Virus record (IMG/VR): IMGVR_UViG_3300045733_000207
Coordinates: 1-50,977 of that record
DNA: 50,977 nt
Reading direction: 5' to 3' (one strand)
From: a virus
Lineage: Duplodnaviria > Caudoviricetes
Positions 11,601 through 41,046 of the stretch are shown piece after piece. The number at the start of each line of letters is the position of its first letter. Within the stretch, counting starts at the first letter, position 1. The notes under the pieces are model-generated. The model ran no database searches and had not been told where the DNA came from. It saw only the letters and a list, made by a program, of their open reading frames with translations. Position numbers and translations under genes: made by a program.

Positions 11601-12317
11601 GGTGTAAACATCTTTACTGGTAGAAGCAAACTCAAAAATGCTGGAGGTTCAGTCAGGTTACTCGGTGCTCCTAGTTTCTTGAAATCGGCATTTGAATTGA
11701 TGGCGTTCAAACCTATATGGGGTGCAAAGACTGCCGAAGCAAGAATGGTTTTTGCCAAAGAATACGCACGCATAGGTGGCGTTATGACAATGATGTATCT
11801 GTTGGCGCATAAAGCTGGTGCGGACATTGATTTTCACCCTACCTCAGGCAAGTTTGGAGACATTACCCTTCCCGGCGGGTACTATTTCAATCCATTCAAC
11901 TACGTCAAATCGAAGTTGGTCTTTACCGCTCGCATGATTCAAGACTTGTCGGCAACCGCTGGTGCGCTCAGTACTGGAACGAATCGCAAAACAAACAACC
12001 CTTATAGTGCCGATTCTGGAAAGACTGTGTTCAGGTTTGCTCAGAGCGTGGCGCATCCCGGAGCAAGTTCAACGTTAAGCGCATTCACTGGTCGTCAATT
12101 CAGTGGAGAGCCGGTGACGAAAACAAGTATGGCAAAGGATGCACTTGCGCCACTGTCGCCATCGCAGACATTTGATTATATGGGTGAAGGCAAGAACAAA
12201 ACGGGCGGAGCGATTATGTCAATCCTGAATCTTGTGGGCTTCCCCGTCGGAATTGATTATGAAGATAAATCCAGACATACCAAGCCCAGTGTCCCTAAAG
12301 CTCCGAGTCCATATTGA
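5625..12317 (+). CDS. 2230-aa giant internal virion/ejection (polyvalent-type) protein with two possible ADP-ribosyltransferase-like inserts
   Basis: Size and position; N-terminal DYDELLxY x3; segments VKVYRAIP..GDWVT..YAEQHG and WYRG..FYS..ADEYA..GYDGI..ELHVF; long coiled-coil region. Confidence 0.65.
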   Translation: MDTDYDELLNYKPTQSATAVAPSSDYDELLKYQPPKPPQVQPPVQPPTESDYDELLNYKTPTPTPTPPPDPYFAGMVDKFNQGYNALQTVSGFVSGVAQNREAERQSYLTEDQKLAERMKDARREYVAAPVGSPEAVAAQRQPELGKKAQGVDVNQRPSLVARAVEQYGTAATPDFAFKMWGMSPVSESGEAQTPGEVATDFLAQTAGTLTGFGAVSGGLKLITKAFKIPTYVAQLASLYKTAPKLAKIADAGLRNATLFGTHSQIYIPVDTTVTERAKALGQSQIDAALFTGAGLAPKLLQTPAMAGVGWVMAGENASQEDRAVSMATMVLLHLMGQGAERIKAIRETSDILKETGVNNPVELAVTVLDGITPEQIDSVKRQATKVPPSAVLNPPDRVGKFKRFGPRPAEQPVKSPIQREDYKGQHRPVTIEGGAARLDDLTPAFGLDIYGKDAVRYFGTGDTKLDGETVNILQSLKGKPDADVKVYRAIPKEVNETDLKQGDWVTVNKDYAEQHGQTTLGGNHKIITQTVRARDLTTNADSFHEQGYYPSEVLAPSETQIGEQPIVPQPTLPVQPRQPTQPIEAQATTTRPTAEPASILNTIWYRGIPPEGKDLASGDTFYSASKGVADEYASQLGQDKRGKVSEHGKDIMPKNPLVIESKEVLAENMGIDDPFNKDFDAKAKAYAQDKGYDGIYYENGTTDFNTGELPPELHVFPQPTPAAPPTPAKAPAVQDKGETLIPSLVKTVVTNHPLYGHQPMEILEEYHDSYITKTEGGHIAVVSKDGTTVFFPAMDEDVKPRRIIKSADNVETARKYLDWRVAAEAKNKLIADRQRNATIPEQKAPVTQTAPIFKTATKPATRTDIKKARFFELRDMAKSAKYESGETAFDHRQGNSQKDLLNAVLEHRRWYNESMGKKERAPISKETRAKLSRAAVDRKYREDEIAQLDSVAAEAYRNGDNETARNAAMAANELRGKTEDVTLDSLKPGDTFTLDGEQHRVMAETDTSLRIKDGVEFSIPYEQDGIIIDKGSLKHNQPPEVVKATEPKAPGELFSESEKPFNLAQESSLDNAVVMAEQAKTAAQKAQQETAQVKMDLTGQPPDSPYQVGQTVKLAGKNPRTAVITKISTDTETGDVYYDLKPNKGDPIGNATERDFKALKTPAPTMDQILAKQRAAKVSPLDKLSANERAAVEQMNISEGEKKKVAERMLAKKMGPGAANPEDISESFGLQERVIAPLNEALGRKPEVKGEPVSDETVTKQALDNINADPNHVTNLVKNLQSNPHPLNNLEVVTLSVGANKLLQVRNAAAERTNQAAAKGDEPARIKAQEEFMLAAKEVDDILDVTARGHDKSVSEMGRALRQLRVLRDEEFKVITMESNLKARQGGKPLTPEQMAEVQRLHGEWVKAQGEVETGKTERTKAATDTTMRDIEQKARKQSKVDPDKVLTRIRNALAADPELTVADMQTDLQKLALYLEQKNIDANKGKSTLTHEELVTQLHELIRREMPTVRPDEIRDALTGYGQVRYPSKDVAKTALRGHKAELLKVAPLETVQKNIAELQTKAKQAEIEATKHTGYQRDQATARARELTKQLNNAMKEQDRLMGELGIKPDDSAQRLKSGLDAKETRLTNEIADIDRAIAENKRLVKAQPSVLMNEKIKALEAKRAERKAQYDEIFPEQPITDQQRLDRAIKVAARSLADWTQRAIDAAAGKFKTKEPGKPLPESDKLMNIIKEREAAKVEVQRLRDIAFPKKSAHEIALQTYRTRTENRIKFLEDKMARNDFTTPQRDPLDISGEPKALAAQAKLGEIKQRYDNLKKQAWWNTLGHGEKTWVMAKGVYESIRNLRYAFDNSILGRQGWWMLLSHPKEVWAKAVLPSTAAASKTQSMKYAAEFDERPNHKNGFDDISGLSYNKADKSGNYLAADDRQELNVTRRVPGIDASGRMYATGANLIRGGAFDFFLANTKTGARLTRNPKNLSAQDKQFLKDIAQGVNIFTGRSKLKNAGGSVRLLGAPSFLKSAFELMAFKPIWGAKTAEARMVFAKEYARIGGVMTMMYLLAHKAGADIDFHPTSGKFGDITLPGGYYFNPFNYVKSKLVFTARMIQDLSATAGALSTGTNRKTNNPYSADSGKTVFRFAQSVAHPGASSTLSAFTGRQFSGEPVTKTSMAKDALAPLSPSQTFDYMGEGKNKTGGAIMSILNLVGFPVGIDYEDKSRHTKPSVPKAPSPY

Positions 12318-12342
12318 CGATAATTGACAGTTATGATATAGT
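12314..12342 (+). promoter_or_regulatory. Sigma70-type promoter
   Basis: TTGACG-17 bp-TATAGT with extended -10 TG. Confidence 0.65.
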
Positions 12343-12351
12343 GAGGTGCAA

Positions 12352-15309
12352 ATGAAAAAGTTGATGATGATATGTGCGATGTTGATTGGCGTGACGTTGA
12401 ACGTGGAAGCGTTCAACTATGATACTTACTCTGACTCTTTCAATGCAACTAATGTATCGTATGATTACGAAAACTTCTCCTACGATTTTTCGGGCTATTC
12501 GGACGTATTGATGACCAACACCTTTACGCCCGCCTTCGCGCATATCATGCTGCGCCTGAGTTATCCGCAACACAACGGCACGAGCTATCTGGACGTGACC
12601 AATGGCGTGACTACGGTTGGCTCAAACAGTTCCACGTGGAGTGCAATAATTTCGAGGACGAATTTTCCGCCAACCACGATCTACTTTGCGGAATATCTCG
12701 GTTTCGAGTCTCAAGCAACCAATGTTCCGGCCAGGGTCTTGGCTGCGGGTCGCGTCAACATCCACTACAGTATCTACCAAGGCACGGCGGCGGCTGGCTA
12801 CACGAATCCGCTTCAAGGTCAGATCATCATTGGTGTTGTAGGTACGAATGGGTTAATGGCGCAAGACATGTATGATCCGACTGGCGCACAGTTGCCGGTT
12901 GTGTTTACAAATGATTCAAGACTTAGTGATACTCGTGTCCCTACAGCGGCATGGCAGAACATTATTAATGCCAGCACGAATCAGACTGTTGTGAACAGCA
13001 ACACATTCTACGCTGTTGATGTATCGCTTGCGACACAGATCAATACCAACACAGCATCTATAACGAACGAGGCCGCGCTCAGAACTGCGGCAGATTCTTC
13101 ACTTACCATGCAGGTAAGTACGAACAAAGCGAGCATTACCAATGAGGCGGCATTACGAATATTGGCAGATGCTTCATTGACTTCACAGATTGGCACGAAT
13201 ACCGCGAGTATCACAAACGAGGCCGCGCTAAGGATAGTGGGTGACAATACTGGCACGAACTACACGTATGCCGTTAGTAATGCGCTCAGAACGGCACTCA
13301 GTTCAGCGACCAACCAGACTCTAGCCAACAGCAATGCACTCAACGCAGTTGATGTGTCGTTGACGGCACAGATAGTCAGTAACGATACCGACATCGCTGC
13401 GGGCTTTACGACTCAGATTCAACATACCGCAAGCATCACGTCGCTGACTTCTCAGATCAACACCAACACTGCCAGCATTACGAATGAAGCTGCTAACAGG
13501 GCTGCGGCTGATATTGTCGGTACGAACTACACGTATGGCGTCAGTAACGTCTTGCATGTGGTTGACACGAATCTGCAAGATCAGATTACAGCGATAGGTA
13601 ACGCTTATTCGACAAATTCGTATCTATTCCCGCGCCTTGTTGTGTCCGATCCTACTCAACAGGGTGGCGAAATGGTGACAAATGGCAGTTTCACGAGTGA
13701 CTCAGGCGGCTGGATATTGACGAACGCTTACTGGTCAGGCGGTCATATGTATGTCAACGCCGGACTCACAGCGACCATTACACAGAGCAATACTACGGCA
13801 ATCACCAATGGCCGTATCTACGTCGTGCGGGTTACGAAGGGGACGACGAATGGCACACTGTCAACCTTCTTTGCGGGTAACAGTACAACGAATATGGCAC
13901 TTGGCGTGAACAGTAACAATCTGGTGTGCATGAATGCCAGTAACGACTTGGTCATTACCTGTACTGGCGGTGGGGCTGGTACATGGATAGACGATGTAAG
14001 CATCAAGCAGATCACGAATGGCAGTGCATATGTGGCTGGCGATCTGTACGTGGGCGGCAACTTCATTGGGACACATGCTTATGCGCTGTCAAGTGAGGTT
14101 ACGGCGGAAGCAGACCGGGCGCAGGTGGCAGAGGCGTTGATGGTGCAGACGAATGTCTATACCAATGCTGTCAACATCTTCGGAAACAACCACATTTGGA
14201 AGGCGTCCTACACGAATCTTGTTCCAGCATTGGCAGCGGCAACATATGGGGATACGTTAATACTTTCCCCCGGTATTCATGTCGCAGGTACATTCTCGTT
14301 TCCATCTAATATCTGTGTGATAGGTCAAGGAGTGGATAATACCATCATATCTAATACAGCCGCCGATAGTGCTTTCAAACTATCACCTGGTTCAATTTAT
14401 TTTAGGAATATTTATTTCAAGGGACATGGGCAGACAACTCTTCCTATGTTTCCTTTGGTTAACTCAACAGCGTCAACAGATGTTCATTTTGACAACTGTA
14501 TCGCAACTAATCTTACCGTGAGTTCACCAACAACATGTTTCTCGTCGTACAATAACACAAATGATTTCTACCTGAACTCGTCAACTATTTACGGACAGTT
14601 CTACAGAGTATCGGACACCTTTGGTAAGGTTAGATTATACATTTCCGGTCTTTCTTATTTTGAAAATCCCACATCAGAATATGGAGGGGGCGCAACAAAT
14701 TACTATGGTGCCAGTGAAACAAATTACTTTGGGCTATCAACACATGTGGGTGATGTGGTTGCACATTCCATTTGGTTACCAGGAAATTATCCGAATGATG
14801 GGCGGTTGAATCTTGGCAATAACACAAATACGTATGTGGCAGACCAAGGCGCGCCGGGAGTACCGACATGGTATTTGTACGTTAATGGTGTCAATACACT
14901 TCGATCATATTCCAACATAGTTGAACTTTTTCAAGGCATGGCGTTTTACAACAATCCGGTTGGCGGCGAAGGCCTCGACATGCAGGGTCGGATCATAGAC
15001 TCGCTGGCAAACGGAACCAACGATGAGGCTGTGAATTATTACCAGTTGACGAACGCTGTCAGCGGCATGGTGAGCAATAATCAGCAGGGCGTGACGTTCG
15101 GCGGCCAGATCACGAGTGCGGCCACGGCCGGTAACTCCACACAATTGCTCGGTCAGGTTGCGGGGTATTATCGCTTGGCTCAGACCATCACCAATGCCCC
15201 GTTTAACACTGTCGGGCTTGGGGTGATGTGTCTTGGCACGAACTACAACGGGAGCAACGGCGTATTCTGGGCTGTTGGAACAACCAATTACATTATGACG
15301 TTCCCATGA
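12352..15309 (+). CDS. ~985-aa Thr/Asn-rich tail fibre/spike-like protein with an N-terminal signal peptide
   Basis: MKKLMMICAMLIGVTLNVEA signal-like start; repeats QINTNTASITNEAALR; beta-helix-like entry motif (AATYGDTLILSPG...IGQG). Confidence 0.65.
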   Translation: MKKLMMICAMLIGVTLNVEAFNYDTYSDSFNATNVSYDYENFSYDFSGYSDVLMTNTFTPAFAHIMLRLSYPQHNGTSYLDVTNGVTTVGSNSSTWSAIISRTNFPPTTIYFAEYLGFESQATNVPARVLAAGRVNIHYSIYQGTAAAGYTNPLQGQIIIGVVGTNGLMAQDMYDPTGAQLPVVFTNDSRLSDTRVPTAAWQNIINASTNQTVVNSNTFYAVDVSLATQINTNTASITNEAALRTAADSSLTMQVSTNKASITNEAALRILADASLTSQIGTNTASITNEAALRIVGDNTGTNYTYAVSNALRTALSSATNQTLANSNALNAVDVSLTAQIVSNDTDIAAGFTTQIQHTASITSLTSQINTNTASITNEAANRAAADIVGTNYTYGVSNVLHVVDTNLQDQITAIGNAYSTNSYLFPRLVVSDPTQQGGEMVTNGSFTSDSGGWILTNAYWSGGHMYVNAGLTATITQSNTTAITNGRIYVVRVTKGTTNGTLSTFFAGNSTTNMALGVNSNNLVCMNASNDLVITCTGGGAGTWIDDVSIKQITNGSAYVAGDLYVGGNFIGTHAYALSSEVTAEADRAQVAEALMVQTNVYTNAVNIFGNNHIWKASYTNLVPALAAATYGDTLILSPGIHVAGTFSFPSNICVIGQGVDNTIISNTAADSAFKLSPGSIYFRNIYFKGHGQTTLPMFPLVNSTASTDVHFDNCIATNLTVSSPTTCFSSYNNTNDFYLNSSTIYGQFYRVSDTFGKVRLYISGLSYFENPTSEYGGGATNYYGASETNYFGLSTHVGDVVAHSIWLPGNYPNDGRLNLGNNTNTYVADQGAPGVPTWYLYVNGVNTLRSYSNIVELFQGMAFYNNPVGGEGLDMQGRIIDSLANGTNDEAVNYYQLTNAVSGMVSNNQQGVTFGGQITSAATAGNSTQLLGQVAGYYRLAQTITNAPFNTVGLGVMCLGTNYNGSNGVFWAVGTTNYIMTFP

Positions 15310-19702: not shown

Positions 19703-20427
19703 TTTTCAACAAGCCGTGTCCGATAGATGAGCAGCCGTGCAACGATGGTAAACCGGATTGCTGCTTCTATCCCAAAGGTTGCCCGGAGATGCAGCAACCT
19801 CAACTTCCAGTCATCGGCGATGTGGGCCATTGTAAACATCTCACTTTTTGGCCCCCAATATGCAAACTCATCCACTACCAACTCAATAAGGGTCACCGCG
19901 ATTGGTGCACCCGACACGTCAAACTCTATAAAGAAGTGCTCGGTACGCATGACTTCACCTTCATGCCATGCAAGGAATCAGTCTATGGCATAGGCGTAGG
20001 CGAATCTCTGGCTGGCAAAGGCACAGTTATCACGCCGTATGAGCAATATCTTGACGAGGCCGCTAAGGGCAAACTTGAGTTTTGGGTTTTCAATACGGGC
20101 TTCACACTGGAAGAACGGAAAATTTGTGTTGATTGGTGGATGGAGAATTGTCTCGGCAGCGATTACGACTGGCCGGACATTCTCGATATATTCTGGAAGA
20201 TAACAAAAGGCAAATTCAGTTACAGCAGGCAGCATCCTAAGCTGCCGTGGTTCTGCTCCGAATCAGTTGCGGCCATGCTGCGGCAAGTCAATGACGTGTA
20301 TCAGACATCGTGTCCCACACCTATGAGAACAGAACAAATCGCAGGCTGGTTGAGTCGGCCAGACGAGATGTACACTAGTTTGTGGTTGCGGTTTCATGTT
20401 GACAAGGATGTGCTCCCGGAAATATAA
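19699..20427 (+). CDS. Permuted papain-like NlpC/P60 (YiiX/YaeF-like) amidase/peptidase
   Basis: His motif (THD) precedes G.DYDW and WFCSESVA; true start may be ~19788. Confidence 0.65.
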   Translation: MIFNKPCPIDEQPCNDGKPDCCFYPKGCPEMQQPQLPVIGDVGHCKHLTFWPPICKLIHYQLNKGHRDWCTRHVKLYKEVLGTHDFTFMPCKESVYGIGVGESLAGKGTVITPYEQYLDEAAKGKLEFWVFNTGFTLEERKICVDWWMENCLGSDYDWPDILDIFWKITKGKFSYSRQHPKLPWFCSESVAAMLRQVNDVYQTSCPTPMRTEQIAGWLSRPDEMYTSLWLRFHVDKDVLPEI

Positions 20428-20518
20428 TCTTCGCTTCGCACCGATAAACATTGATCAGGATTGACTTGCCAAAAATACTTCTTGCAACTTACCTATGATA
20501 AGTAGTAATCTCTCCACC

Positions 20519-20665: not shown

Positions 20666-20899
20666 GTGCGTAACATGGACATTAAACACAATCTCACCTT
20701 AGTGCATTGCAGGGACTGTCAGCATCACCAACTAGGCTTAGACCGGAAACTACGTTGCCGATTCAATGTTGGTAAACCATTGCCAGTCTGGGCAATCACA
20801 GAATCAATCATGGTCGTACCGCCAAGCAAGGGCTGGCCGTGCAAGGCGTTTAAGTCCAACACGGATTTGAGGGCCGGCAAAGCCGTACCCTCGAAATGA
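20666..20899 (+). CDS. Small Cys-rich hypothetical protein; its C-terminus runs into an attC-like site
   Basis: CRDC...C...C; in-frame AAC at 20858. Confidence 0.55.
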   Translation: MRNMDIKHNLTLVHCRDCQHHQLGLDRKLRCRFNVGKPLPVWAITESIMVVPPSKGWPCKAFKSNTDLRAGKAVPSK

Positions 20900-20908
20900 T
20901 GGTTGTCG
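20854..20908 (-). mobile_element. attC-like recombination site (locus 1)
   Basis: + strand: GTCCAAC acgga TTT GAGGGC cggc aaa gccg [T] ACCCTC [G] AAA tgatg GTTGTCG; extrahelical T and G on the right arm. Confidence 0.8.
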
Positions 20909-20933
20909 TAACAAATCAAAGGAGGGTTGAATA

Positions 20934-21281
20934 ATGATTACTCAACAGACAGCAGCGAAGATATGGGCAGCATACCGCGAAATTGAAGTGTCCGAAAAAC
21001 TGATTGCCGACATGAAGAAAGAACGGGATGCGCCTTTCTCTGACATCAAGCGCCACGAAGCAACGCTGAAGGACGCTTTCGGACGAAGGCAGCATCTTGA
21101 ACTTGGCATCCCTTGCGGAGACAATGGGCATCGACTCTATCAGGTTGAACCGGAACTTGCGGAGTCTGTCATTCGCGCTCACATCGCCCACAAACGGGTT
21201 GCGCTGGTTGAAGCCAATGAATGTGCGCGGATCGAACTCAGTACCGACAACAACAGAATATGCGTCACCGGCGAGGACTGA
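20934..21281 (+). CDS. Hypothetical protein, cassette cargo
   Basis: GGAGG RBS; flanked by GTTGTCG (20902) and its reverse complement CGACAAC (21245). Confidence 0.75.
   Translation: MITQQTAAKIWAAYREIEVSEKLIADMKKERDAPFSDIKRHEATLKDAFGRRQHLELGIPCGDNGHRLYQVEPELAESVIRAHIAHKRVALVEANECARIELSTDNNRICVTGED
21245..21267 (-). mobile_element. attI-like terminal site 1
   Basis: CGACAAC-aacag-AATATGCGTCA; same motif and spacing as 30557-30579. Confidence 0.6.
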
Positions 21282-22256: not shown

Positions 22257-22583
22257 ATGCCCACTACAGATAAACAGGCGCAAGTGCTGGAAGCTGCAAG
22301 ACAAATCAAGCATCTACGATTTGACTGGCGACGCCACAACCCTTGCGACCTGTTTGTTCTGAGTGCTGGACAGGAACGTATATTGGCAGAGGCAGAGCAA
22401 ATTACTCAGGCGCGGCTGGCGGAGTATTTCGCAATAAAGGCAGAGTATCAGGCTATGACCGAAATAGAGTCTAGGCGGGGTGAGGATACGGCCATTGATG
22501 ATGAGATTCACAAAGCCATTTCGGACAGGATCGGCGGTGATGCTTACTTTGGGTTGCCGCCTAGGGAGCATGTAAATTCGTGA
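22257..22583 (+). CDS. Hypothetical protein
   Basis: AAGGA RBS; 108 aa. Confidence 0.6.
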   Translation: MPTTDKQAQVLEAARQIKHLRFDWRRHNPCDLFVLSAGQERILAEAEQITQARLAEYFAIKAEYQAMTEIESRRGEDTAIDDEIHKAISDRIGGDAYFGLPPREHVNS

Positions 22584-22586
22584 TCC

Positions 22587-22641
22587 GCCGGGGTGGGGAA
22601 CATTCGGCAGCATACCCCTTGCTGACCGCCCCACGCCCGGC
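22587..22641 (+). other. Long GC-rich intergenic hairpin
   Basis: GCCGGG/CCCGGC, GTGGGG/CCCCAC and CAGCA/TGCTG closing a 7-nt loop. Confidence 0.6.
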
Positions 22642-22665
22642 CTTTAAGGATGTAAAAGAAATTTG

Positions 22666-22840
22666 TTGACTGTTTTCAGGAGATGTGATTAACTATGCGG
22701 CATGAAAAGAATACTGGTATGTTCTTGGAATCAAAACCACTGCATAGACAAGCTTGCATTTTGTCCCCACATGGACAAGTCCACTTGTCTGTCGGTCTGG
22801 CCCAAAACCGGAACGGCATACCAGCATGTGGGGACTTTTT
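22666..22840 (+). ncRNA. Promoter plus multi-stem leader RNA with internal antisense boxes (C4/CI-like architecture)
   Basis: TTGACT at 22666; outer stem GTCCCCACATG/CATGTGGGGAC followed by TTTTT; inner boxes complementary to 22714-22723 and 22744-22752. Confidence 0.55.
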
Positions 22841-24664: not shown

Positions 24665-26098
24665 ATGAATGATTACGAGAAATTCTTGGAGCAAAAGTCG
24701 CAGCTTGGTGGGAACTATGGATTTGAACCGACGTTCATGCCCGCGCTTCTGTTTCCTTTTCAGGTCGCATTGACACAATGGGCAACAATGAAGGGACTTT
24801 GCGCTATTTTTGCCGACTGTGGTCTTGGCAAAACTTTCATTCAGTTGACCTGGGCTGAGAATGTCGCACGCAAAACAGACAAGCCCGTTCTCATTCTTGC
24901 GCCTCTTGCCGTATCAGGTCAAACAGTAAAAGAAGCCGACAAGATTGGAGTAGACTGTCAACAGAGTCGCGACGGTAAAGTCATGCCGCGAATCACGGTG
25001 ACTAACTATGAGAAATTACACCTGTTCAATCCTTCTGATTTTGCGGGATGTGTCTGCGATGAATCATCCATCTTGAAACATTTCACTGGCGCAACGCAAA
25101 TGCAAGTCACGCGGTTTATGAATAAGATGCCGTATCGATTGCTTTGCACGGCAACCGCCGCGCCTAACGATTACATTGAACTTGGAACGTCAAGTGAGGC
25201 GTTAGGGGAGTTAAATTATTCAGATATGCTGTCCAGATTTTTCAAACAGCTTGATGATAAGGGACAAAAGAGTGAGACTAAGAGACAAGACTTTGACGAG
25301 AAAGCATCAAAGCATTTTGCAAAGCTATCATTCAGAGTGTCGCAGACTATCGGGCAATACCGATTAAAACATCACGCTATAACGGCTTTCTGGAAATGGG
25401 TTTGTTCATGGTCAAGAGCATGTCGGAAGCCGAGTGATCTGGGATTCGATGATACGGGATTCATTCTACCGGAACTCCAAGAACAGCATCACATCATAAC
25501 ACCGACCACTCCGCCTGAGGGAATGCTTTTCTGTATGCCTGCTTTCGGACTGAGAGAAGAACGGGAAGAGCGACGGCGCACTATGAAAGAGCGTTGTGAG
25601 TTTGTGGCGTCATTGGTGAATCATTCTGAGCCTGCTGTTATTTGGTGCCACATGAATAAAGAGGGTGATCTGCTGGAAAAGATAATTCCTGATGCGCAGC
25701 AAATCAAAGGGTCAACGCCGGATGATATGCGTGAAGAACTTTACGCGGCGTTCAGTTCCGGCAATCAACGAGTGCTGATTATCAAGCCAAAGATAGGAGC
25801 TTGGGGACTCAACTGGCAGCATTGCGCACACGTTGTCACATTTGCCAGTCATTCTTATGAACAGTTCTATCAGTCAATAAGAAGATGCTGGAGGTTCGGG
25901 CAGAAAAGGCCTGTAAGATTAGACGTTGTCGCAACCGAGGGAGAACGCGGAGTGTTTGAAAACATGATGAGGAAGTCTCAGAGAGCGGATGCAATGTTTA
26001 CAGAATTAGTCAAACACATGAACGATGCACAAAAAATAGAGAGAGTCAACAGCTACACAAACAAAATGGAGGTTCCGTCATGGTCAAAGAACAGCTAA
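24665..26098 (+). CDS. SNF2-like superfamily 2 helicase
   Basis: ADCGLGKT (Walker A), CDESS (Walker B), TATAAPN, GLNWQ, QSIRRCWRFGQ. Confidence 0.9.
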   Translation: MNDYEKFLEQKSQLGGNYGFEPTFMPALLFPFQVALTQWATMKGLCAIFADCGLGKTFIQLTWAENVARKTDKPVLILAPLAVSGQTVKEADKIGVDCQQSRDGKVMPRITVTNYEKLHLFNPSDFAGCVCDESSILKHFTGATQMQVTRFMNKMPYRLLCTATAAPNDYIELGTSSEALGELNYSDMLSRFFKQLDDKGQKSETKRQDFDEKASKHFAKLSFRVSQTIGQYRLKHHAITAFWKWVCSWSRACRKPSDLGFDDTGFILPELQEQHHIITPTTPPEGMLFCMPAFGLREEREERRRTMKERCEFVASLVNHSEPAVIWCHMNKEGDLLEKIIPDAQQIKGSTPDDMREELYAAFSSGNQRVLIIKPKIGAWGLNWQHCAHVVTFASHSYEQFYQSIRRCWRFGQKRPVRLDVVATEGERGVFENMMRKSQRADAMFTELVKHMNDAQKIERVNSYTNKMEVPSWSKNS

Positions 26099-27036
26099 TC
26101 ACACCGCGCTATGCGATATACAATGGTGACTGCGTTCAAGCAATGCAAGAGTTGAAAGATGAATCAATCCACCTTTCTCTATACTCACCTCCTTTCGCCG
26201 GGTTATACGTTTATTCGAGCGATGAGCAAGACCTGTCAAACTCCGTCAACTTCACGGAGTTTATGGATCACTACCGTTTCGTGATAAACGAAATCCACCG
26301 GCTCACAATGCCTGGCCGAATATCAGCCGTGCATTGCATGGATATTACCACTGGGAATAGTGGGTTCGATCATCTGAAAGATTTTCCGGGAGATATAATT
26401 AGGCTCCACGAGGAATGCGGCTTTCATTATATCGCACGGTATCACATTTGGAAAGAGCCATTGACGATCCGCAATAGAACAATGATGAAGTCGCTATCGC
26501 ATAAATGTCTTACGTTAGATTCAACAAAATGCAGCGTTGCTAACGCGGATTATCTGTTGATCTTTCGGCGGTCCGGTAACAATCCTGTTCCTGTTGCGCA
26601 TACTCACGGACTGTTGAACTATGCCGGGGAAAAGCCGATACCAAACGAAGTCCTGCCTTATCGTAACTGGCAAGGTAGTCAGCTTGAGAACAGATATTCT
26701 CAATGGGTTTGGAGGCAATACGCAAGTTCATTCTGGGATGATGTTAGGATTGACCGCGTGTTGAAATACAGACCCGCAAAAGATCAAGACGATGAAAAGC
26801 ATTGTCACCCCTTGCAACTTGACGTAATAGAGCGTGCCTGCGTGCTATGGTCAAACCCTAACGACGTTGTGTTGACTCCGTTCATGGGAGTGGGATCAGA
26901 GGTCTATGGGGCAGTACTGAACGGACGCAAGGCCATAGGGGTTGAGTTGAAGTCGTCATACTTCAAACAGGCGGTACGAAATCTAGCCGAGATCAAGCTG
27001 GATGATGAGCATGGCGAGTTCCAATTCAAAACTTGA
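26080..27036 (+). CDS. DNA amino-methyltransferase (N4-C/N6-A, beta class)
   Basis: SPPF catalytic motif near the N-terminus; HP.QL and VLTPFMGVGS SAM-binding motif near the C-terminus. Confidence 0.9.
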   Translation: MVKEQLITPRYAIYNGDCVQAMQELKDESIHLSLYSPPFAGLYVYSSDEQDLSNSVNFTEFMDHYRFVINEIHRLTMPGRISAVHCMDITTGNSGFDHLKDFPGDIIRLHEECGFHYIARYHIWKEPLTIRNRTMMKSLSHKCLTLDSTKCSVANADYLLIFRRSGNNPVPVAHTHGLLNYAGEKPIPNEVLPYRNWQGSQLENRYSQWVWRQYASSFWDDVRIDRVLKYRPAKDQDDEKHCHPLQLDVIERACVLWSNPNDVVLTPFMGVGSEVYGAVLNGRKAIGVELKSSYFKQAVRNLAEIKLDDEHGEFQFKT

Positions 27037-27497: not shown

Positions 27498-27670
27498 ACA
27501 GAATCAAGCGACAGAAGAATACTGCAAAGACCTGCAAGAATTGCTCGGCATGGTTCGGTGATGATGAGACTTGCTGGTATATCTCCTGCAAGCGCAACCC
27601 TTGCCAATATGACCATTGGAGATCAAAGAAGTTTGCAACGAGTTCCAACAATGCCGTGAGGGTCAAATGA
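27494..27670 (+). CDS. 58-aa Cys-rich protein (absent from the ORF track)
   Basis: Own translation MNRIKRQKNTAKTCKNC...SSNNAVRVK; GGAGG RBS; stop overlaps ATG 27667. Confidence 0.55.
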   Translation: MNRIKRQKNTAKTCKNCSAWFGDDETCWYISCKRNPCQYDHWRSKKFATSSNNAVRVK

Positions 27671-27709
27671 CCGCTGCGGGCATTTGTACTCTCGACGGGC
27701 TGGTTCGCT
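27643..27709 (-). mobile_element. attC-like site Z
   Basis: TTCCAAC aatgc CGT GAGGGT CAAATG ... CATTTG [T] ACTCTC [G] ACG ggctg GTTCGCT. Confidence 0.85.
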
Positions 27710-28392
27710 GTCTTGATCTCTTCTGCTGCGCCGGGGGGGCAGGAGAGGGCTACCGCCGCGCCGGGTTCGACGTGACCGGCGTGGACATCCGGCCTCAACC
27801 GCAGAACCCGCACCGATTCATTCAGGGGGACGCGCTCGCGTTCCTGCCCGCCCACGGCCACGAGTTCGACTTCATCCACGCAAGCCCGCCATGCCAAGGC
27901 TACAGCACGCTTGCCGCGATGCACCCAGGCAAGACGTGGCCGAAACTGATTGACCAAGTGCGGTCGTTGCTCAAGGCGACCGGACGGCCTTACGTGATTG
28001 AGAACGTCGAAACCGCACCGCTCAACCGTGAATCTGACCTGTTCGGAAACCACGGCGTCTTGCTGTGTGGGAGCATGTTTGGCCTCGGTGTGGAGAGCGG
28101 ATTTCTGCGGAGGCATCGAATCTTCGAGACGAGCTTTCCAGTCCCGCAGCCGGAATGCCGCCACGTCGGCAAGGCGGTGGGAGTTTACGGCCACGGCGGG
28201 CACACTGGAAAGCACCGGATGCTGTACCGCGAAGAGGCGGCGAAGGCGATGGGGATTGACTGGATGAACAGGGACAACATGTGCCAGGCGATACCGCCGG
28301 CGTACACCGAATGGCTTGGGCGCTACGCGATGGCCCATACAGCGAACGCCCGAAATCAGGGGCTTGCGCACCAAGGAGAACGCCATGACTGA
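27667..28392 (+). CDS. Short DNA cytosine-C5 methyltransferase (cassette cargo)
   Basis: LDLFCCAGG (motif I), SPPCQ (IV), IENV (VI); GC-richer than its flanks. Confidence 0.85.
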   Translation: MTAAGICTLDGLVRCLDLFCCAGGAGEGYRRAGFDVTGVDIRPQPQNPHRFIQGDALAFLPAHGHEFDFIHASPPCQGYSTLAAMHPGKTWPKLIDQVRSLLKATGRPYVIENVETAPLNRESDLFGNHGVLLCGSMFGLGVESGFLRRHRIFETSFPVPQPECRHVGKAVGVYGHGGHTGKHRMLYREEAAKAMGIDWMNRDNMCQAIPPAYTEWLGRYAMAHTANARNQGLAHQGERHD

Positions 28393-28438
28393 GACAAACG
28401 CGAGCGGGGCGCAAGTACCCTGCATTTCATTGTTGGCC
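28341..28438 (-). mobile_element. attC-like site A; loop holds AGGAG RBS and ATG 28385
   Basis: AGCGAAC gcccga AAT CAGGGG CTTGCGC ... GCGCAAG [T] ACCCTG [C] ATT tcatt GTTGGCC. Confidence 0.85.
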
Positions 28439-28657
28439 GATCACCTCGACTTGATGGTTGATGAGTTCAAGAGGATCAAGGCGCTGACAAGGGATACCGA
28501 AATTCAAGGGCTTTGTGACCGGGCAATCTCAAACACGAAACAGCGCGTTCCGGTGATTGTTCAACGGAACGAATGGGAGAGGAAGTTCTGGGAACTGGAC
28601 AAGCAATGGTCGGAGCGATACGCCGAATTGAAGAAGGCCACCGGCAGGAGGAAGTGA
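28385..28657 (+). CDS. Hypothetical protein (cassette cargo)
   Basis: RBS and ATG inside the site A loop. Confidence 0.7.
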   Translation: MTETNASGAQVPCISLLADHLDLMVDEFKRIKALTRDTEIQGLCDRAISNTKQRVPVIVQRNEWERKFWELDKQWSERYAELKKATGRRK

Positions 28658-28763
28658 AATGACGCCCAAAGAAATTGAACAAGCAGAGCATGACGAGTTG
28701 GATAAGCACGGTGTGTTGAAGTTTGCCGAGCTTTCTCCTGTACGGTCGGTGCCATTGTTGGCT
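28636..28763 (-). mobile_element. Degenerate attC-like site B
   Basis: Intact right arm CCTG[T]ACGGTC[G]GTG ccatt GTTGGCT; left arm shortened, starting GGCCACC instead of GGCCAAC. Confidence 0.6.
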
Positions 28764-28967
28764 GAGGCAGTTCTTATTGACATCTTCAAGACAACTGTTC
28801 AGGCAATGCGAGATAGGCATATTCATCTGGCAGATCATTGTCTTGATTGCAGGCGTGAGTTTCGATGGGAATTCATATGCCCTGAATGCGAGGGCATTGA
28901 AATTGACAAAAGAAATCAGCAAGCCAACGCTCCTCTTGAGCGTTTGCGAGAAAAGGAGAATGGATGA
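28659..28967 (+). CDS. Hypothetical protein with CxxC...CxxC (cassette cargo)
   Basis: GGAGG RBS; CLDC...CPEC. Confidence 0.7.
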   Translation: MTPKEIEQAEHDELDKHGVLKFAELSPVRSVPLLAEAVLIDIFKTTVQAMRDRHIHLADHCLDCRREFRWEFICPECEGIEIDKRNQQANAPLERLREKENG

Positions 28968-29012
28968 AAAAGAAGCGGCTGTCGAGCAATACGCTCCGAG
29001 AGGTTGTTCGGC
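28922..29012 (-). mobile_element. attC-like site C; loop holds AGGAG and the ATGA overlap
   Basis: AGCCAAC gctcct CTT GAGCGT TTGC ... GCAA [T] ACGCTC [C] GAG aggtt GTTCGGC. Confidence 0.85.
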
Positions 29013-29197
29013 TATGCTATCTCTGCAAAGCACCTGCAACGCGACTTCTGGTGCGGTGGGGTTATGATCCAGACATTACTACACGGAAACCAATTTGCTC
29101 GAAATGTCCTTCAGGTGGAGTTGACAGTACGTGTGGTTACTCAACTGAGCCATTACCGAACGCGGAGCATGAGCCTCCGCGAGAAAGGAAAGTATGA
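28964..29197 (+). CDS. Small zinc-finger-like protein (cassette cargo)
   Basis: CYLC...CSKC; ATGA coupling at both ends. Confidence 0.65.
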   Translation: MKKKRLSSNTLREVVRLCYLCKAPATRLLVRWGYDPDITTRKPICSKCPSGGVDSTCGYSTEPLPNAEHEPPRERKV

Positions 29198-29253
29198 AAC
29201 GATTACGAATTGCCGCCGCGCTTCTCGCGGCAGGCTCCGGGCTTTTGTTGGCC
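29155..29253 (-). mobile_element. attC-like site D
   Basis: ACCGAAC gcggag CAT GAGCCT CCGCGAGAA ... TTCTCGCGG [C] AGGCTC [C] GGG ctttt GTTGGCC. Confidence 0.8.
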
Positions 29254-29484
29254 GGAAGTATCTACGCAGATACCAACGTCTGGTCTAACGACAGCACCAA
29301 CATATGCTCGATCAATACATGGAGGGTATCTACTGATCTTACCATTGGCCCCGTCACTATCTGTACGACTAATGGGGTAGTCAAGATCAAGGAGGGCGTA
29401 GCACTTGATGAAGCGAGTAGAGCTTTTTGGAAGGCAGTGTCAGATGCGTATCCCGCGATGTTTGAAACGGTGAAAAAGAAGTGA
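29194..29484 (+). CDS. Secreted hypothetical protein (cassette cargo)
   Basis: Signal peptide MKRLRIAAALLAAGSGLLLAGSIYA, mostly encoded by the attC loop and arm. Confidence 0.7.
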   Translation: MKRLRIAAALLAAGSGLLLAGSIYADTNVWSNDSTNICSINTWRVSTDLTIGPVTICTTNGVVKIKEGVALDEASRAFWKAVSDAYPAMFETVKKK

Positions 29485-29485
29485 A

Positions 29486-29544
29486 GGCCAACGCTGACAT
29501 GAGGCGCGGCGGGTGAGCCGTCGCCCTCCATGTGTTGGTTGGGC
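29486..29544 (-). mobile_element. attC-like site E (59 bp)
   Basis: GGCCAAC gctga CAT GAGG..GGCGG gtgag CCGTC..CCTC [C] ATG tgttg GTTGGGC. Confidence 0.8.
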
Positions 29545-29550
29545 AATGTT

Positions 29551-29715
29551 ATGGACGTAGATAAGAAATGGTTCAAGGATCAATTGTTCGTGATTGTGTA
29601 CCACACGGCGCACGAAAGCGAGTTGACACTGAGGGAGATGGTTCAGGCCCTTCACGAAGTGGCTGAACACGTCATGTTTCTGGAGGAAAAGAAGAATGAC
29701 AACGATGGAAGGTAA
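29551..29715 (+). CDS. Small hypothetical protein (cassette cargo)
   Basis: ATG 7 nt after site E. Confidence 0.5.
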   Translation: MDVDKKWFKDQLFVIVYHTAHESELTLREMVQALHEVAEHVMFLEEKKNDNDGR

Positions 29716-29881
29716 ATGTGCGGCACGTCTGCATTGGTTGCATGACTGTTCAATCGGAACATTGGATGTAGACGGCTATGAGTTTGTAACGGGGCAGGGC
29801 TTCACAATCGAAGCTGCTGCGCTCGCCGCCGAAGCTGACATAAAAGAGGCGTGTCAATCATGGGACTATGTAGTCGTCTAA
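29696..29881 (+). CDS. Small hypothetical protein (cassette cargo)
   Basis: GGAGG RBS; TAA stop lies inside the GTCTAAC box. Confidence 0.6.
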   Translation: MTTMEGKCAARLHWLHDCSIGTLDVDGYEFVTGQGFTIEAAALAAEADIKEACQSWDYVVV

Positions 29882-29934
29882 CGCCGCAACTCAGCCGCGA
29901 GCTTAGGCGAGTAGGCTGGTGTTGCTGGTTGGAA
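29876..29934 (-). mobile_element. attC-like site F (59 bp)
   Basis: GTCTAAC gccgca ACT CAGCCG ... [T] AGGCTG [G] TGT tgctg GTTGGAA. Confidence 0.8.
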
Positions 29935-29940
29935 CTGAAT

Positions 29941-30099
29941 ATGAAAACAACTTTAGATATGCTTAAAATGAGATTGTTCCTTTTGGAGAAATTGCGGGAT
30001 CAGATGGATGAAGATATTTTGCATGTATGGTTCGCATGGCAATGGGCGAAATATAGACATAGTTCCAACACTCAAGCTGAGGCTGAGAGAAGAGCGTAG
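29941..30099 (+). CDS. Small hypothetical protein (cassette cargo, AT-rich)
   Basis: Bounded by GTTGGAACT and AGTTCCAAC. Confidence 0.55.
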   Translation: MKTTLDMLKMRLFLLEKLRDQMDEDILHVWFAWQWAKYRHSSNTQAEAERRA

Positions 30100-30133
30100 C
30101 GATGAACGATAGATCTCCAGCGCCTTGTTCGGC
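30063..30133 (-). mobile_element. attC-like site G (weaker inner stem)
   Basis: TTCCAAC actcaa GCT GAG ... CTC [C] AGC gcctt GTTCGGC. Confidence 0.65.
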
Positions 30134-30596
30134 GGCTCCGGTCAAATGGAAAGGACGCGCTGTCTTTAGCTCGGCCCACGTCGAATGGGGAACTGACCCG
30201 GCACTAAAAGCGGCGCTCGACAAAGAGTTTAGGTTCACGCTCGATCCATGTACACCTGGACAAATATGGGATGGCAGGGCGATGTCGTGGGTCGGACATC
30301 GCGTCTTCTGTAATCCTCCATACGGTAAAGGCATGGACAAGTGGTTCGTCAAAGGGCCGGAAGCAGAACTCGCCGTGTTCCTTGTGCCTGCAAGAACCGA
30401 TGTGGGGTGGTTTCACGACTACGCGCTAAAAGCTGCCGAGATCAGATTCTTTCGTGGGCGTCTTAAATTTGTGGAGGGTCACGCTATCAAACCAGACAAA
30501 TTCTTTGGGACTGCGCCGTTCCCCTCGATGCTCGTAATTTTCAGGCGCGAGGATTCGCCGAACAGTGCAATATGCGTCAAGACGGTTTGCCATTAG
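30102..30596 (+). CDS. Phage N6-adenine DNA methyltransferase (Dam-like; cassette cargo)
   Basis: EW.T.P, FTLDPC, FCNPPY, LVPARTD, RGRLKF and APFPS motifs. Confidence 0.88.
   Translation: MNDRSPAPCSAAPVKWKGRAVFSSAHVEWGTDPALKAALDKEFRFTLDPCTPGQIWDGRAMSWVGHRVFCNPPYGKGMDKWFVKGPEAELAVFLVPARTDVGWFHDYALKAAEIRFFRGRLKFVEGHAIKPDKFFGTAPFPSMLVIFRREDSPNSAICVKTVCH
30557..30579 (-). mobile_element. attI-like terminal site 2
   Basis: GCCGAAC-agtgc-AATATGCGTCA with no hairpin partner; matches 21245-21267. Confidence 0.6.
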
Positions 30597-30635
30597 AACG
30601 AAACAAGCTGTCCGAGCAGCGGCAGCGAATAAAGG

Positions 30636-30775
30636 TTGACAGTGCGCGGGGATTTGGTAGGATGTGCGACATGCTAGAGTTAAATCAGAATCAGTTTGAA
30701 TCCCGTTCAAGTGGCGCAAGCCATTTCTTCCCGCAAGGGGAAACTCTAGCAGGCTTGGGCGGGATTCTTTTTTTT
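30636..30775 (+). ncRNA. Promoter plus multi-stem leader RNA/terminator with antisense box, upstream of the replication genes
   Basis: TTGACA...TGGTAGGAT; stem 30698-30711/30754-30767 followed by T8; two GCAA tetraloop hairpins; 30742-30751 is complementary to 30672-30681. Confidence 0.65.
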
Positions 30776-30795
30776 ACAGGGAAAAGAGGATTGCC

Positions 30796-31449
30796 ATGTA
30801 TGGTAAATTATTTGTTTCGATGTACGAGGGGTCAATGGTTGGAGCTGGTGCCAATGTTTTTGCGTTATGGGGTTATTGCATAGCCAAAGCCGATCCAGAG
30901 GATCACACTGTTATTTTGAATCCCGAACTTTTAGCAAAGATCATTGGTACTACTGCCGAGGAAATATCAAAGTCATTGACATTTTTGACATCGCCTGATC
31001 CTAACTCAAAAAATGGAGATCACGGCGGTTGCAGGTTGTTACATCAATCAGGATTCCAGTATTTCCTTGTGAGTCACGAACACTATCGGAACATCAAAAA
31101 CAGCGAAGACGTAAGGGCTTACAACAGAGAAATGAAACGTAGAGAACGTGAAAGGAAGGCGTTGAAGGTAAATGTCAATGACAGTCATGGACAAGTCAAT
31201 GACTCTGCCTCTGCTTCTGTATCTGATATTGGGGATTGTCAAGGGGGACATACGCTCGCCGAGTGTCTAGCTGCTTCTGAGGGAATTGGAATGAAGCCTG
31301 ACGATGTTAAGAAGTTCTTCGACTACTACGACGGGGTTAAAGGCTGGGGTACAATCAAAGGCAGTCTCAAGTCAGCGTTGTCATACTGGAAATCCAACAG
31401 CCATAATTTCGACAAGCCTAAATCACGAACCCGCCCAGTGAACATATGA
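30796..31449 (+). CDS. Putative replication initiator
   Basis: N-terminal HTH-like region, charged linker, C-terminal FFDYY..KGW...W domain; coupled to the primase-helicase. Confidence 0.6.
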   Translation: MYGKLFVSMYEGSMVGAGANVFALWGYCIAKADPEDHTVILNPELLAKIIGTTAEEISKSLTFLTSPDPNSKNGDHGGCRLLHQSGFQYFLVSHEHYRNIKNSEDVRAYNREMKRRERERKALKVNVNDSHGQVNDSASASVSDIGDCQGGHTLAECLAASEGIGMKPDDVKKFFDYYDGVKGWGTIKGSLKSALSYWKSNSHNFDKPKSRTRPVNI

Positions 31450-39099: not shown

Positions 39100-39327
39100 A
39101 TGGACGAGCGGGTGAAGGTGGTGGATAGGCCGAAGTTACCTGACGATTTCATAACATTCACGGTGCATCGGTGGTTAGTGGATATGATGCGTGTGCGGAA
39201 GAAGAAGACAGGTGAGCCATTGATACATCAGGTAGAGACGGCTGTGAAGTGGTATCTGGAGGGGAAGGATTCGAGGAAGATAGAGACTGACGAGCGGGGG
39301 TATTATGATGCTGATGGGGTGAAGTGA
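39100..39327 (+). CDS. Small hypothetical protein, possible ribbon-helix-helix
   Basis: TGATG overlap; FITFTVH strand followed by helices. Confidence 0.5.
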   Translation: MDERVKVVDRPKLPDDFITFTVHRWLVDMMRVRKKKTGEPLIHQVETAVKWYLEGKDSRKIETDERGYYDADGVK

Positions 39328-39791
39328 AATTAACGGAGGTTTAGTTATGAAAAACGTCAAGATAATGTCGCAATGGGATATTCGGCGAATTGTGAGGGAT
39401 GAGATAGACAAAAGTATTGCCCATATAACAGAGAAAACAATTCAGAGAATTTGTAATGATTATCTTTATCGAACGGAGAGGGGTTTTCTGGATCATCTGG
39501 CTAGACAATTTGGTTTGAAGGTTGCGGTTCCTGTGACTCAAAACATAACGGATGCTACCCCGATTCGGGATTTGCGTTTTACACGACGCACTCAGAGTTG
39601 TTTGGAACTGGCAGATATAAAAACCATTGCAGAATTGACGAATAAAACTACGTCTGATTTACTAAGATGTAGGGGACTTGGCAAAAAAACATTCTTTGAA
39701 GTTCGTAATCGGTTAAAAAGTTGTGGGCGGTCATTGAAAGATGAATGATGGTTAGGAAGATAGAGACTGACGAGCGGGGGTATTATGATGC
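39274..39791 (+). repeat. 38-bp direct repeats (39274-39311 and 39754-39791) flanking the alphaCTD gene
   Basis: AGGAAGATAGAGACTGACGAGCGGGGGTATTATGATGC occurs twice, 480 bp apart. Confidence 0.9.
39347..39748 (+). CDS. Protein with an RNA polymerase alpha subunit C-terminal domain
   Basis: PIRDLRFTRRTQSCL..ADIKTIAEL......LL...GLGKKT..EV...L...G.SL matches the RpoA CTD pattern. Confidence 0.85.
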   Translation: MKNVKIMSQWDIRRIVRDEIDKSIAHITEKTIQRICNDYLYRTERGFLDHLARQFGLKVAVPVTQNITDATPIRDLRFTRRTQSCLELADIKTIAELTNKTTSDLLRCRGLGKKTFFEVRNRLKSCGRSLKDE

Positions 39792-40794: not shown

Positions 40795-41046
40795 ATGCCT
40801 AATAAAACAGCGACGGTTGAGCAATACGCAGATTGTTCGGTGTGTGTTCACGGCCACGATCTTGATCCGCGTGCAAGTTCGATGGTCGTCTGCACGCCAC
40901 AACACAAGGCGCACGATCCGCGCCACTGTTGCTCTGGTTTCCGGCACATCACAATCATAGAAATTGACGAAAGATCAAATGCTAAATTTGGGAAACCCAA
41001 CATAGAGATCACCGGCGACAGTCCTGTGCATCGAGTGGTTGAATGA
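40795..41046 (+). CDS. Small Cys/His-rich protein, probable cassette relic
   Basis: Bounded by GTTCGGT (40835) and ACCCAAC (40995); C-richer than the G-rich flanks. Confidence 0.5.
   Translation: MPNKTATVEQYADCSVCVHGHDLDPRASSMVVCTPQHKAHDPRHCCSGFRHITIIEIDERSNAKFGKPNIEITGDSPVHRVVE
40995..41044 (-). mobile_element. Isolated short attC-like site (locus 3)
   Basis: ACCCAAC ataga GAT CACCGG ... [T] CCTGTG [C] ATC gagtg GTTGAAT. Confidence 0.6.

Follow-up and report, generated by a model that had tools for sequence, protein, structure and literature searches.

Two attC-type cassette arrays in a river phage genome share a head motif that is a candidate attI-like or attG-like entry site

The attI site of integrons is a double-stranded site located 5′ of the first cassette and beside the integrase gene intI, and it is described as working only with its cognate integrase (PMC2095811). 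In the simple site of attI two binding domains of 7 bp face each other in inverse orientation, and a high diversity is reported among attI families and classes (PMC3146285). Cassette insertion by the integrase (IntI) was also found at genomic sites termed attG, which are double-stranded and diverse and have a GWT core; attG hotspots bear extra flanking motifs, and the authors propose that attI is possibly hotspot-derived (bioRxiv 10.1101/2022.09.11.507474). In phages, including virulent ones, 17 integrase-less attC clusters (CALINs) were described with five methyltransferases in their cargo, and five of six phage attC sites tested recombined with attI1 (PMC9892861). Such reports of integron cassettes and attC clusters in phages are recent, and they raise the question of how arrays are built in genomes without an integrase. 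Here we analysed the genome of a river phage of the class Caudoviricetes (IMG/VR record IMGVR_UViG_3300045733_000207), a complete record of 50,977 bp that is terminated by direct repeats of 127 bp and was examined at its full length (hereafter the window). A first-pass annotation had proposed that the window carries two attC-type arrays ending in a shared non-palindromic motif, AAC-N5-AATATGCGTCA. The present analysis concerns these arrays and the motif at their heads.

The motif was found by exact match (as AACNNNNNAATATGCGTCA) on the plus strand at 21249–21267 and 30561–30579, which bears out the claim of an identical 11-mer at identical spacing, and no further copy was present in the whole record with up to 2 mismatches allowed (reversed control pattern, 0 matches). 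Read on the minus strand, the head of the large array (30557–30579) consists of the 11-mer TGACGCATATT, a GCACT spacer and G|TTCGGC, the junction box of a cassette carrying a Dam-like methyltransferase gene. The head of the small array (21245–21267) consists of TGACGCATATT, a CTGTT spacer and G|TTGTCG, the junction box of a cassette carrying the open reading frame (ORF) 20934. At both heads G|TT lies 5 nt from the 11-mer, in agreement with the minus-strand reading (11-mer, N5, G|TT) that had been annotated. The two sites are identical at 15 of 19 nt, and no further identity was found within ±120 nt. Each junction box complements the other end of its cassette, GTTCGGC (30127) pairing with GCCGAAC (30557) and GTTGTCG (20902) with CGACAAC (21245), and neither motif site showed a hairpin (fold z +0.5 to +1.5 compared to shuffles; only 5.3 bits at 30557–30591 with the attC model described below); boxes without a hairpin partner, as annotated, were thus found at both heads.

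For an independent view of the arrays, a covariance model of attC sites, R1, was built. Training drew on 80 bacterial intI loci, most of them class 1 and the others chromosomal relatives (73–77% IntI identity), in which cassette-side attC sites were chosen by box and fold; 31 attC sites beside intI were aligned and covariation was confirmed. Applied to attC sites of 21 integron loci outside the training set, R1 gave 17–76 bits and favoured the right strand by ~40–60 bits. With default filters it showed four matches of at least 21.5 bits in the window, compared to none of at least 21 bits under the same filters in control DNA of 895,432, 731,566, 327,312 and 314,275 bases (~2.27 Mb), where the best matches reached 17.6 (partial), 12.7 and 12.2 bits. 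These empirical controls were relied upon because the E-values of R1 are rough. The model had been built because of a looser box-plus-fold scan for AAC...GTT hairpins, which gave 14 matches (5–8 in shuffles) and flagged 29486–29544 and 28341–28438. A strict RYYYAAC...GTTRRRY scan gave five palindromic candidates compared to 9.2 ± 4.6 in shuffles, none of which folds end to end, and the arrays were not revealed by generic repeat finding, Rfam (0 families) or a tRNA search. Elsewhere in the window, R1 also showed an isolated match of 21.8 bits at 40995–41044 on the minus strand, far from both arrays and with no 7/7 partner box within 2.5 kb. A short palindromic match at 25162–25207, found on both strands (18.7 and 14.5 bits) inside ORF 24665–26098 with a helicase C-terminal domain, is probably a chance palindrome.

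All attC-like sites of the arrays were found on the minus strand, which places the motif 5′ of the first cassette, at the array head on the top strand, as had been proposed. The best site of the large array, attC-L3 (29486–29544; 35.7 bits, E 2.4e-6, with 5.0 bits on the plus strand; R″ GCCCAAC, R′ GTTGGCC), occupies the sole sizeable intergenic gap of the cluster, of 45 nt, with a hairpin of −16 to −17 kcal/mol. It lies between attC-L2 (29876–29934; 25.4 bits, E 6e-4; R″ TTCCAAC, R′ GTTAGAC) and attC-L4 (28341–28438; 21.5 bits, E 0.005; R″ GGCCAAC, R′ GTTCGCT), the latter spanning the stop of a C5 methyltransferase gene and the start of the next ORF. The weak attC-L1 (30063–30133; 11.1 bits, E 1.3 for the whole window; R″ GCCGAAC, R′ GTTGGAA) is the site of the Dam cassette and overlaps the ribosome-binding site and start codon of the Dam gene; it is backed by 7/7 boxes on both sides and by the loci L004, L340 and L341, where a homologous site of 98 nt (15.1 bits) is located at the start of Dam. 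A doubtful fifth site, attC-L5 (27647–27709), matched with 7.1 bits (E 2.6 in an 11.5-kb search) over 27647–27705, and its end was extended to the box GTTCGCT at 27703–27709, which is complementary at 7/7 positions to AGCGAAC at 28341. The small array contains attC-S1 (20854–20908; 17.3 bits, E 0.046; R″ CGACAAC, R′ GTTGGAC).

The opening TTnnnn of a cassette derives from its own attC and hence should complement the R″ box of that attC. Complementarity between R″ and the next left box was 7/7 for L4–L3 and L2–L1, two pairs in which the model sets both ends (chance ~0.004 each), and also for L5–L4, L1–head and S1–head, compared to 5/7 for L3–L2, such that five of six junctions showed 7/7; for L5–L4 the doubtful L5 end was set by the box itself. 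The large array thus comprises four or five cassettes (27647–30563) and the small array one (20854–21251). A CALIN is recognized by at least two same-strand attC sites within a few kb detected by a covariance model, and here sites of 35.7, 25.4, 21.5 and 11.1 bits were found within 28341–30133, together with R″/TTnnnn complementarity and discrete mobile cassettes. The arrays proposed by the first-pass annotation are upheld by the independent attC model and by box complementarity, and the arrays and the positions of their junctions are well supported. No sequence common to the left ends of the two arrays was found, and a shared left-end element was rejected since the ends showed no similarity. 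The motif pair taken alone is not beyond chance, as detailed below; in the context of the array junctions it is, because each copy is separated by the same 5 nt from the first-cassette junction box of an attC-type array. A shared 11-mer at one offset (0–10) is expected for two array junctions with p ~11 × 0.252^11, or ~3e-6, from base frequencies.

No close relative of the window was found in any collection searched (megablast against 'phages', 0 matches). Among viral contigs the nearest Dam relative showed 60% identity, and among metagenome contigs 69%; a single relative was found for ORF 20934 (63% identity), and relatives of the primase-helicase showed at most 28% identity. The full stretch was present in one identical contig of one sequencing run (X1), which is probably where this DNA comes from, and as a few identical fragments in another (X2); no joints were reported for the contigs of either run, and contigs cannot reveal rare excision or empty sites. 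Four comparison phages (G001–G004) were analysed, and one cassette gene only was common to the window and each of G001–G003. G001 and G002 were chosen as negative controls, as they share only a Dam homologue with the window, and the three genomes have no other protein in common at E < 1e-4. In both phages clusters of R1 matches were shown to adjoin the Dam gene, which is encoded on the other strand. In G001 (L085), seven matches of 10–25 bits were located at 11163–14264 on the plus strand, within 3.1 kb beside the Dam homologue and on the opposite strand to the genes, and this is a second phage array of the reversed type.

The Dam genes of G001 and G002 are bounded by 7/7 boxes, GTTCGCT...AGCGAAC, at positions homologous to the boxes of the window. 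A 523-nt unit of attC-like site and Dam gene was identical at 515 of 523 positions (98.5%) between the Dam locus of G001 (L003, 2916–3438) and that of G002 (L005, 2916–3438). The 200-nt flanks of the unit showed 27–28% identity, and the unit ends exactly at ...AGCGAAC. The unit has the appearance of one cassette captured in two different settings, and because this Dam cassette breaks at the boxes in two unrelated phages, the cassette boundaries at the boxes are confirmed; such a cassette in unrelated phages with the same breakpoints is direct evidence of cassette movement. Past the Dam box, another attC-like site follows in G002, and a non-attC head follows in G001 and in the window. The similarity of the window to other genomes was likewise confined to the inside of the boxes, at nucleotide level covering only 30155–30544 for Dam compared to L003, and only 20916–21238 for the homologue of ORF 20934 in G003, which ends earlier. 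A recurrence of the G001 head sequence in G001–G003 was not found and was rejected, and so was the gene after the first motif copy as a counterpart of the gene after Dam in L003.

In the large array, the first cassette carries a Dam-like N6-adenine DNA methyltransferase (30102–30596, plus strand; PF05869 1.4e-11; phrog_111 7e-31). The homology of this protein to its relatives stops at residues 148–152, and the gene crosses the junction such that its final 11 codons and its stop fall in the motif region, where the plus strand of 30557–30579 corresponds to codons 152–160. The sole cargo of the small array is ORF 20934 (20934–21281, plus strand; 115 aa), which matched no Pfam or PHROG family and has a tail, NNRICVTGED, that is encoded across and past the junction; the plus strand of 21245–21267 falls within this C-terminal tail. 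Both motif copies are therefore located in the 3′ tails of plus-strand ORFs and are in frame alike, encoding N-x-x-I-C-V. Cassette L5 carries a C5 cytosine DNA methyltransferase (27667–28392, plus strand; phrog_363 2.5e-37; PF00145 4.8e-5) that sits between the boxes at 27703 and 28341–28347. Each cassette gene has its start within or next to its own attC and no stop inside the cassette, and because these genes read across the junction, the motif is coding and the tails are unlike those of the homologues. Three classes of DNA methyltransferase were observed within 4.5 kb, namely N6_N4 (26080–27036), C5 (27667–28392) and Dam-like (30102–30596), the latter two between cassette boxes. A 187-aa ORF on the minus strand (28476–29039) ends 37 nt before attC-L4, in the canonical orientation of a cassette gene, and competes with four small plus-strand ORFs; no PHROG family was found for any of these candidates, and either strand may be the coding one in this cassette.

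Among the described sites, attI (e.g., attI1 of class 1 integrons, plasmid R100) resembles the phage heads in being double-stranded and non-hairpin, in lying just 5′ of the first cassette with a G|TT crossover, and in having a conserved box a few bp upstream. Both phage copies occupy this position on the attC top strand, 5 nt from a 7/7 junction box. In contrast to attI, they have no adjacent intI, no inverted L box ending in AAC and no evident DR1/DR2-type repeats; compared to attI1 they show no sequence similarity (5 of 16 positions by eye), are present in two copies and lie inside coding sequence. The attG sites, as described in bioRxiv 10.1101/2022.09.11.507474, are also double-stranded, non-hairpin and outside an integron platform, have a GWT core (GTT at both phage junctions) and, at hotspots, flanking motifs, and cassettes inserted there can be expressed from neighbouring promoters. 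As far as that account goes, attG sites are very diverse with a short consensus only, whereas the phage heads show an 11-bp word at a fixed offset and whole arrays instead of single cassettes. The annotated 'attI-like entry site' is thus not an attI proper and is equally compatible with a specialized attG-type hotspot.

The CALINs reported from phages are similar to the present arrays in having several same-strand attC sites, no integrase and DNA methyltransferase cargo. They differ, according to the description in PMC9892861, in that here all identifiable cargo is antisense to attC and overlaps the sites, and in the conserved non-attC head motif; phage CALIN boundaries are described there with inverted GTTRRRY motifs and, within that description, not with a shared head box. 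Phage arrays of this kind are already known, and the repeated head motif, the reversed architecture and the cassette in two phages are new details. Phages of the T4 type also contain mobile regulatory stem-loop cassettes (PeSLs), which are promoter and stem-loop elements; small, hairpin-bounded gene modules are shuffled between phages in this way, presumably by homologous recombination. In contrast to PeSLs, the sites in the window match an integron attC model and obey the G|TT logic of cassettes.

We propose, with about an even chance of being right, that the motif is an orphan entry site resembling attI or an attG hotspot, and that the integrase acting on it is supplied by the host. It would represent the phage-side half of a recombination junction heading the two attC-type arrays, and on the minus strand the order would be the 11-bp box (TGACGCATATT), the 5-bp spacer, the crossover G|TT and the TTnnnn of the first cassette. 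The head would be an orphan, double-stranded, non-hairpin site with the position and geometry of attI, or an attG-type hotspot. An integron-type tyrosine recombinase acting in trans, presumably that of the host, would have inserted circular cassettes at this head, the 11-mer serving as the recognition element on which host IntI would act. A host-supplied enzyme is pointed to because the phages lack a tyrosine recombinase and share no common protein fit for a recombinase. The newest cassettes would be that of ORF 20934 in the small array and that of the Dam-like methyltransferase in the large array; the latter had been annotated as the newest, and it is the first cassette by integron logic. Being antisense to attC, the cassette genes would run with phage transcription, beginning at or within the attC of their cassette and continuing through the junction, which would be why the motif ends up inside their C-terminal tails.

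Several findings weigh against an entry site served by a host integrase. No match to the tyrosine recombinase profiles PF00589 or TIGR02249 was found at E ≤ 1 in the window, a complete record, nor was a tyrosine recombinase found at E ≤ 0.01 in G001–G004, making five phage records without an integrase, and adjacency to a cognate intI, as for attI, is lacking. The motif had been expected beside intI genes and at the array ends of other phages. In the 80 intI loci (1.108 Mb) it had no match that was exact or within 1 mismatch, and two matches when 2 mismatches were allowed (~7 expected by chance, estimated), and the head of the G001 array, with the same kind of Dam cassette, carries a different sequence (5 of 11 positions identical by eye). 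Scans of sequence collections listed at least 119 viral and at least 120 bacterial motif-bearing stretches. Among the matches listed, 0 of 120 bacterial stretches contained an IntI-like gene at E ≤ 1, and one viral stretch contained a generic integrase (25% identity). The 119 viral matches listed fell into 73 unrelated clusters, mostly in coding DNA with random flanks, and none of the 239 listed stretches had a convincing attC-like neighbour (viral 0; bacterial two, of 12.7 and 12.2 bits, each several kilobases away). In five phages with a homologue of the backbone gene 30796–31449, neither the motif nor an array was present upstream of it.

The heads themselves also depart from the expectation. 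The inverted L/R pair of an attI simple site, which had been annotated, was not recovered, as the inverted L box is absent (3/7 positions in the large and 2/7 in the small head compared to an inverted R box, counted by hand); attI L boxes can be degenerate, since attI is described as 'devoid of a palindromic sequence' (PMC2095811). The R boxes GTTCGGC and GTTGTCG deviate from GTTRRRY, the 5-nt spacers of the two heads differ at 4 of 5 positions, and the motif is represented by two copies only. The sites that define the heads are the weakest array matches (S1, E 0.046; L1, E 1.3) of a home-made model with rough E-values. Besides, the motif is coding in both ORFs, with protein-level constraint possible, and the cargo genes (Dam, the C5 methyltransferase gene and ORF 20934 in the window, Dam in G001 and G002) run antisense to the top strand of attC, which is atypical for integrons.

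Other explanations of the motif pair were considered. A chance repeat in coding DNA was the initial reading, which was withdrawn after the covariance model revealed the arrays; that a functionless 11-mer recurs by chance in two unrelated genes, within the variable stretches encoding their C-termini and beside chance GTT/AAC boxes, now appears quite unlikely. It is favoured by the 599 pairs of exact 11-mers more than 1 kb apart in the genome, of which 390 align as well or better, by the 7 of 100 shuffles with at least two motif matches, by 148 GTTnnnn...nnnnAAC pairs genome-wide and by the absence of the motif from every related locus. Isolated 3-N5-11 pairs numbered ~11 in the genome compared to ~5 in shuffles, ~0.1 box-plus-11-mer coincidences per genome were estimated from real-genome frequencies, and elsewhere the motif occurs in ordinary coding DNA (e.g., 15 in one conserved gene, among the 119 viral matches listed). 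However, the boxes pair 7/7 with attC-like sites found independently by the covariance model, the Dam box is a cassette breakpoint by comparison, the equal offset at two given junctions has the low probability stated above, and the strict conjunction of box and 11-mer was obtained in 0 of 150 triplet shuffles in a crude joint test. Shared ancestry without present function is also unlikely but retains some weight; here an array head would have been duplicated or recombined within the genome, or both heads would be the decayed L′–R′ half of one attC family. The shortness of the identity and the mosaic nature of phage genomes agree with this, as does the same layout of the attC L′-spacer-R′ (box, ~5 nt, GTT). 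Against it, on a position weight matrix of the attC 3′ half the large head scored −0.6 (94.7th percentile) and the small head −9.0 (73rd percentile), compared to 4.0 to 20.5 for the five phage attC-like sites (98.6–100th percentile), all of which exceeded the heads, and a training mean of 21.4; an origin of the heads as half attC sites was rejected on these scores. A neutral relic would also not hold 11/11 positions of the 11-mer yet lose 4/5 in the adjacent spacer, and no similarity was present past the outer edge of the 11-mer, nor between the left ends of the two arrays.

A genuine attI copied together with cassettes from a host integron, in which intI would lie beside TGACGCATATT-N5-GTT, fits the position and geometry of the heads, and an unfamiliar sequence would be expected since attI classes differ greatly according to PMC3146285. 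Still, the intI loci yielded no match within 1 mismatch, and an IntI-like gene was lacking from the bacterial stretches (weak evidence, given that it covers the matches listed). The cargo, moreover, consists of phage-type methyltransferases oriented for phage transcription, antisense to attC. The suggested capture from a host integron also found no backing in the 18 bacterial Dam-homologue loci, none of which showed attC-like sites, and we regard this origin as distinctly improbable. A plus-strand function apart from recombination, with the motif acting as an operator, as an RNA element ending two early-gene blocks or as a selected I-C-V peptide, and with the arrays merely abutting it, seems more improbable again. 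The same frame of both copies in ORF tails, and the promoter-like site and terminator-like hairpin after the second copy, are in line with such a function, but neither site is structured, the downstream contexts are unrelated, I-C-V was present in 0 of 42 distinct Dam homologue tails, and the fixed 5-nt distance to the junction would be left unexplained.

Nearly all genes of the window are on the plus strand and closely packed, and some further features were observed. A perfect sigma-70 consensus (TTGACA-18-TATAAT, 12/12) is located at 20399–20428, just upstream of the small-gene block with the small array. A 111-nt gap (22584–22694) after ORF 22257–22583 contains a GC-rich terminator-like hairpin (−22 kcal/mol as DNA, z −2.95). 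Downstream of Dam, an intergenic region of 199 nt (30597–30795) contains a promoter-like TTGACA-16-TAGGAT with TG (30636–30663), followed by a long hairpin and a T8 run at ~30700–30778, and could encode a ~100-nt small RNA or form an operon terminator; a like layout of promoter, hairpin and T-run was found ahead of the homologous gene in L499. Exact direct repeats of ~38 nt were detected at 39274–39311 and 39754–39791, 480 nt apart, with a second short pair at 38310 and 38341 (31 nt apart), and internal repeats at 183-nt and 372-nt spacing were found at 1255–2100 within the 843-aa ORF 261–2792.

For the entry site that phage arrays have lacked, the head motif is a specific candidate that can be tested. 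A wider proposal, somewhat less likely than not, is that virulent freshwater phages bear orphan attI-like landing pads (an 11-bp box 5 bp from G|TT) and borrow the integron integrase of their hosts to capture and exchange reverse-oriented cassettes, each made of an attC and, after it, an anti-restriction gene (e.g., for a DNA methyltransferase), which would be expressed by phage read-through and whose pool may circulate among unrelated phages independently of bacterial integrons. These genes antisense to attC would represent an architecture that standard integron annotation tends to discount. Integrons are reported to store anti-phage defence cassettes (bioRxiv 10.1101/2024.07.02.601686, 10.1101/2024.07.02.601719). 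If the site works, phages would actively use host integron machinery to gather counter-defence genes, and this use of integrons by phages would mirror the storage of anti-phage defence cassettes in integrons.

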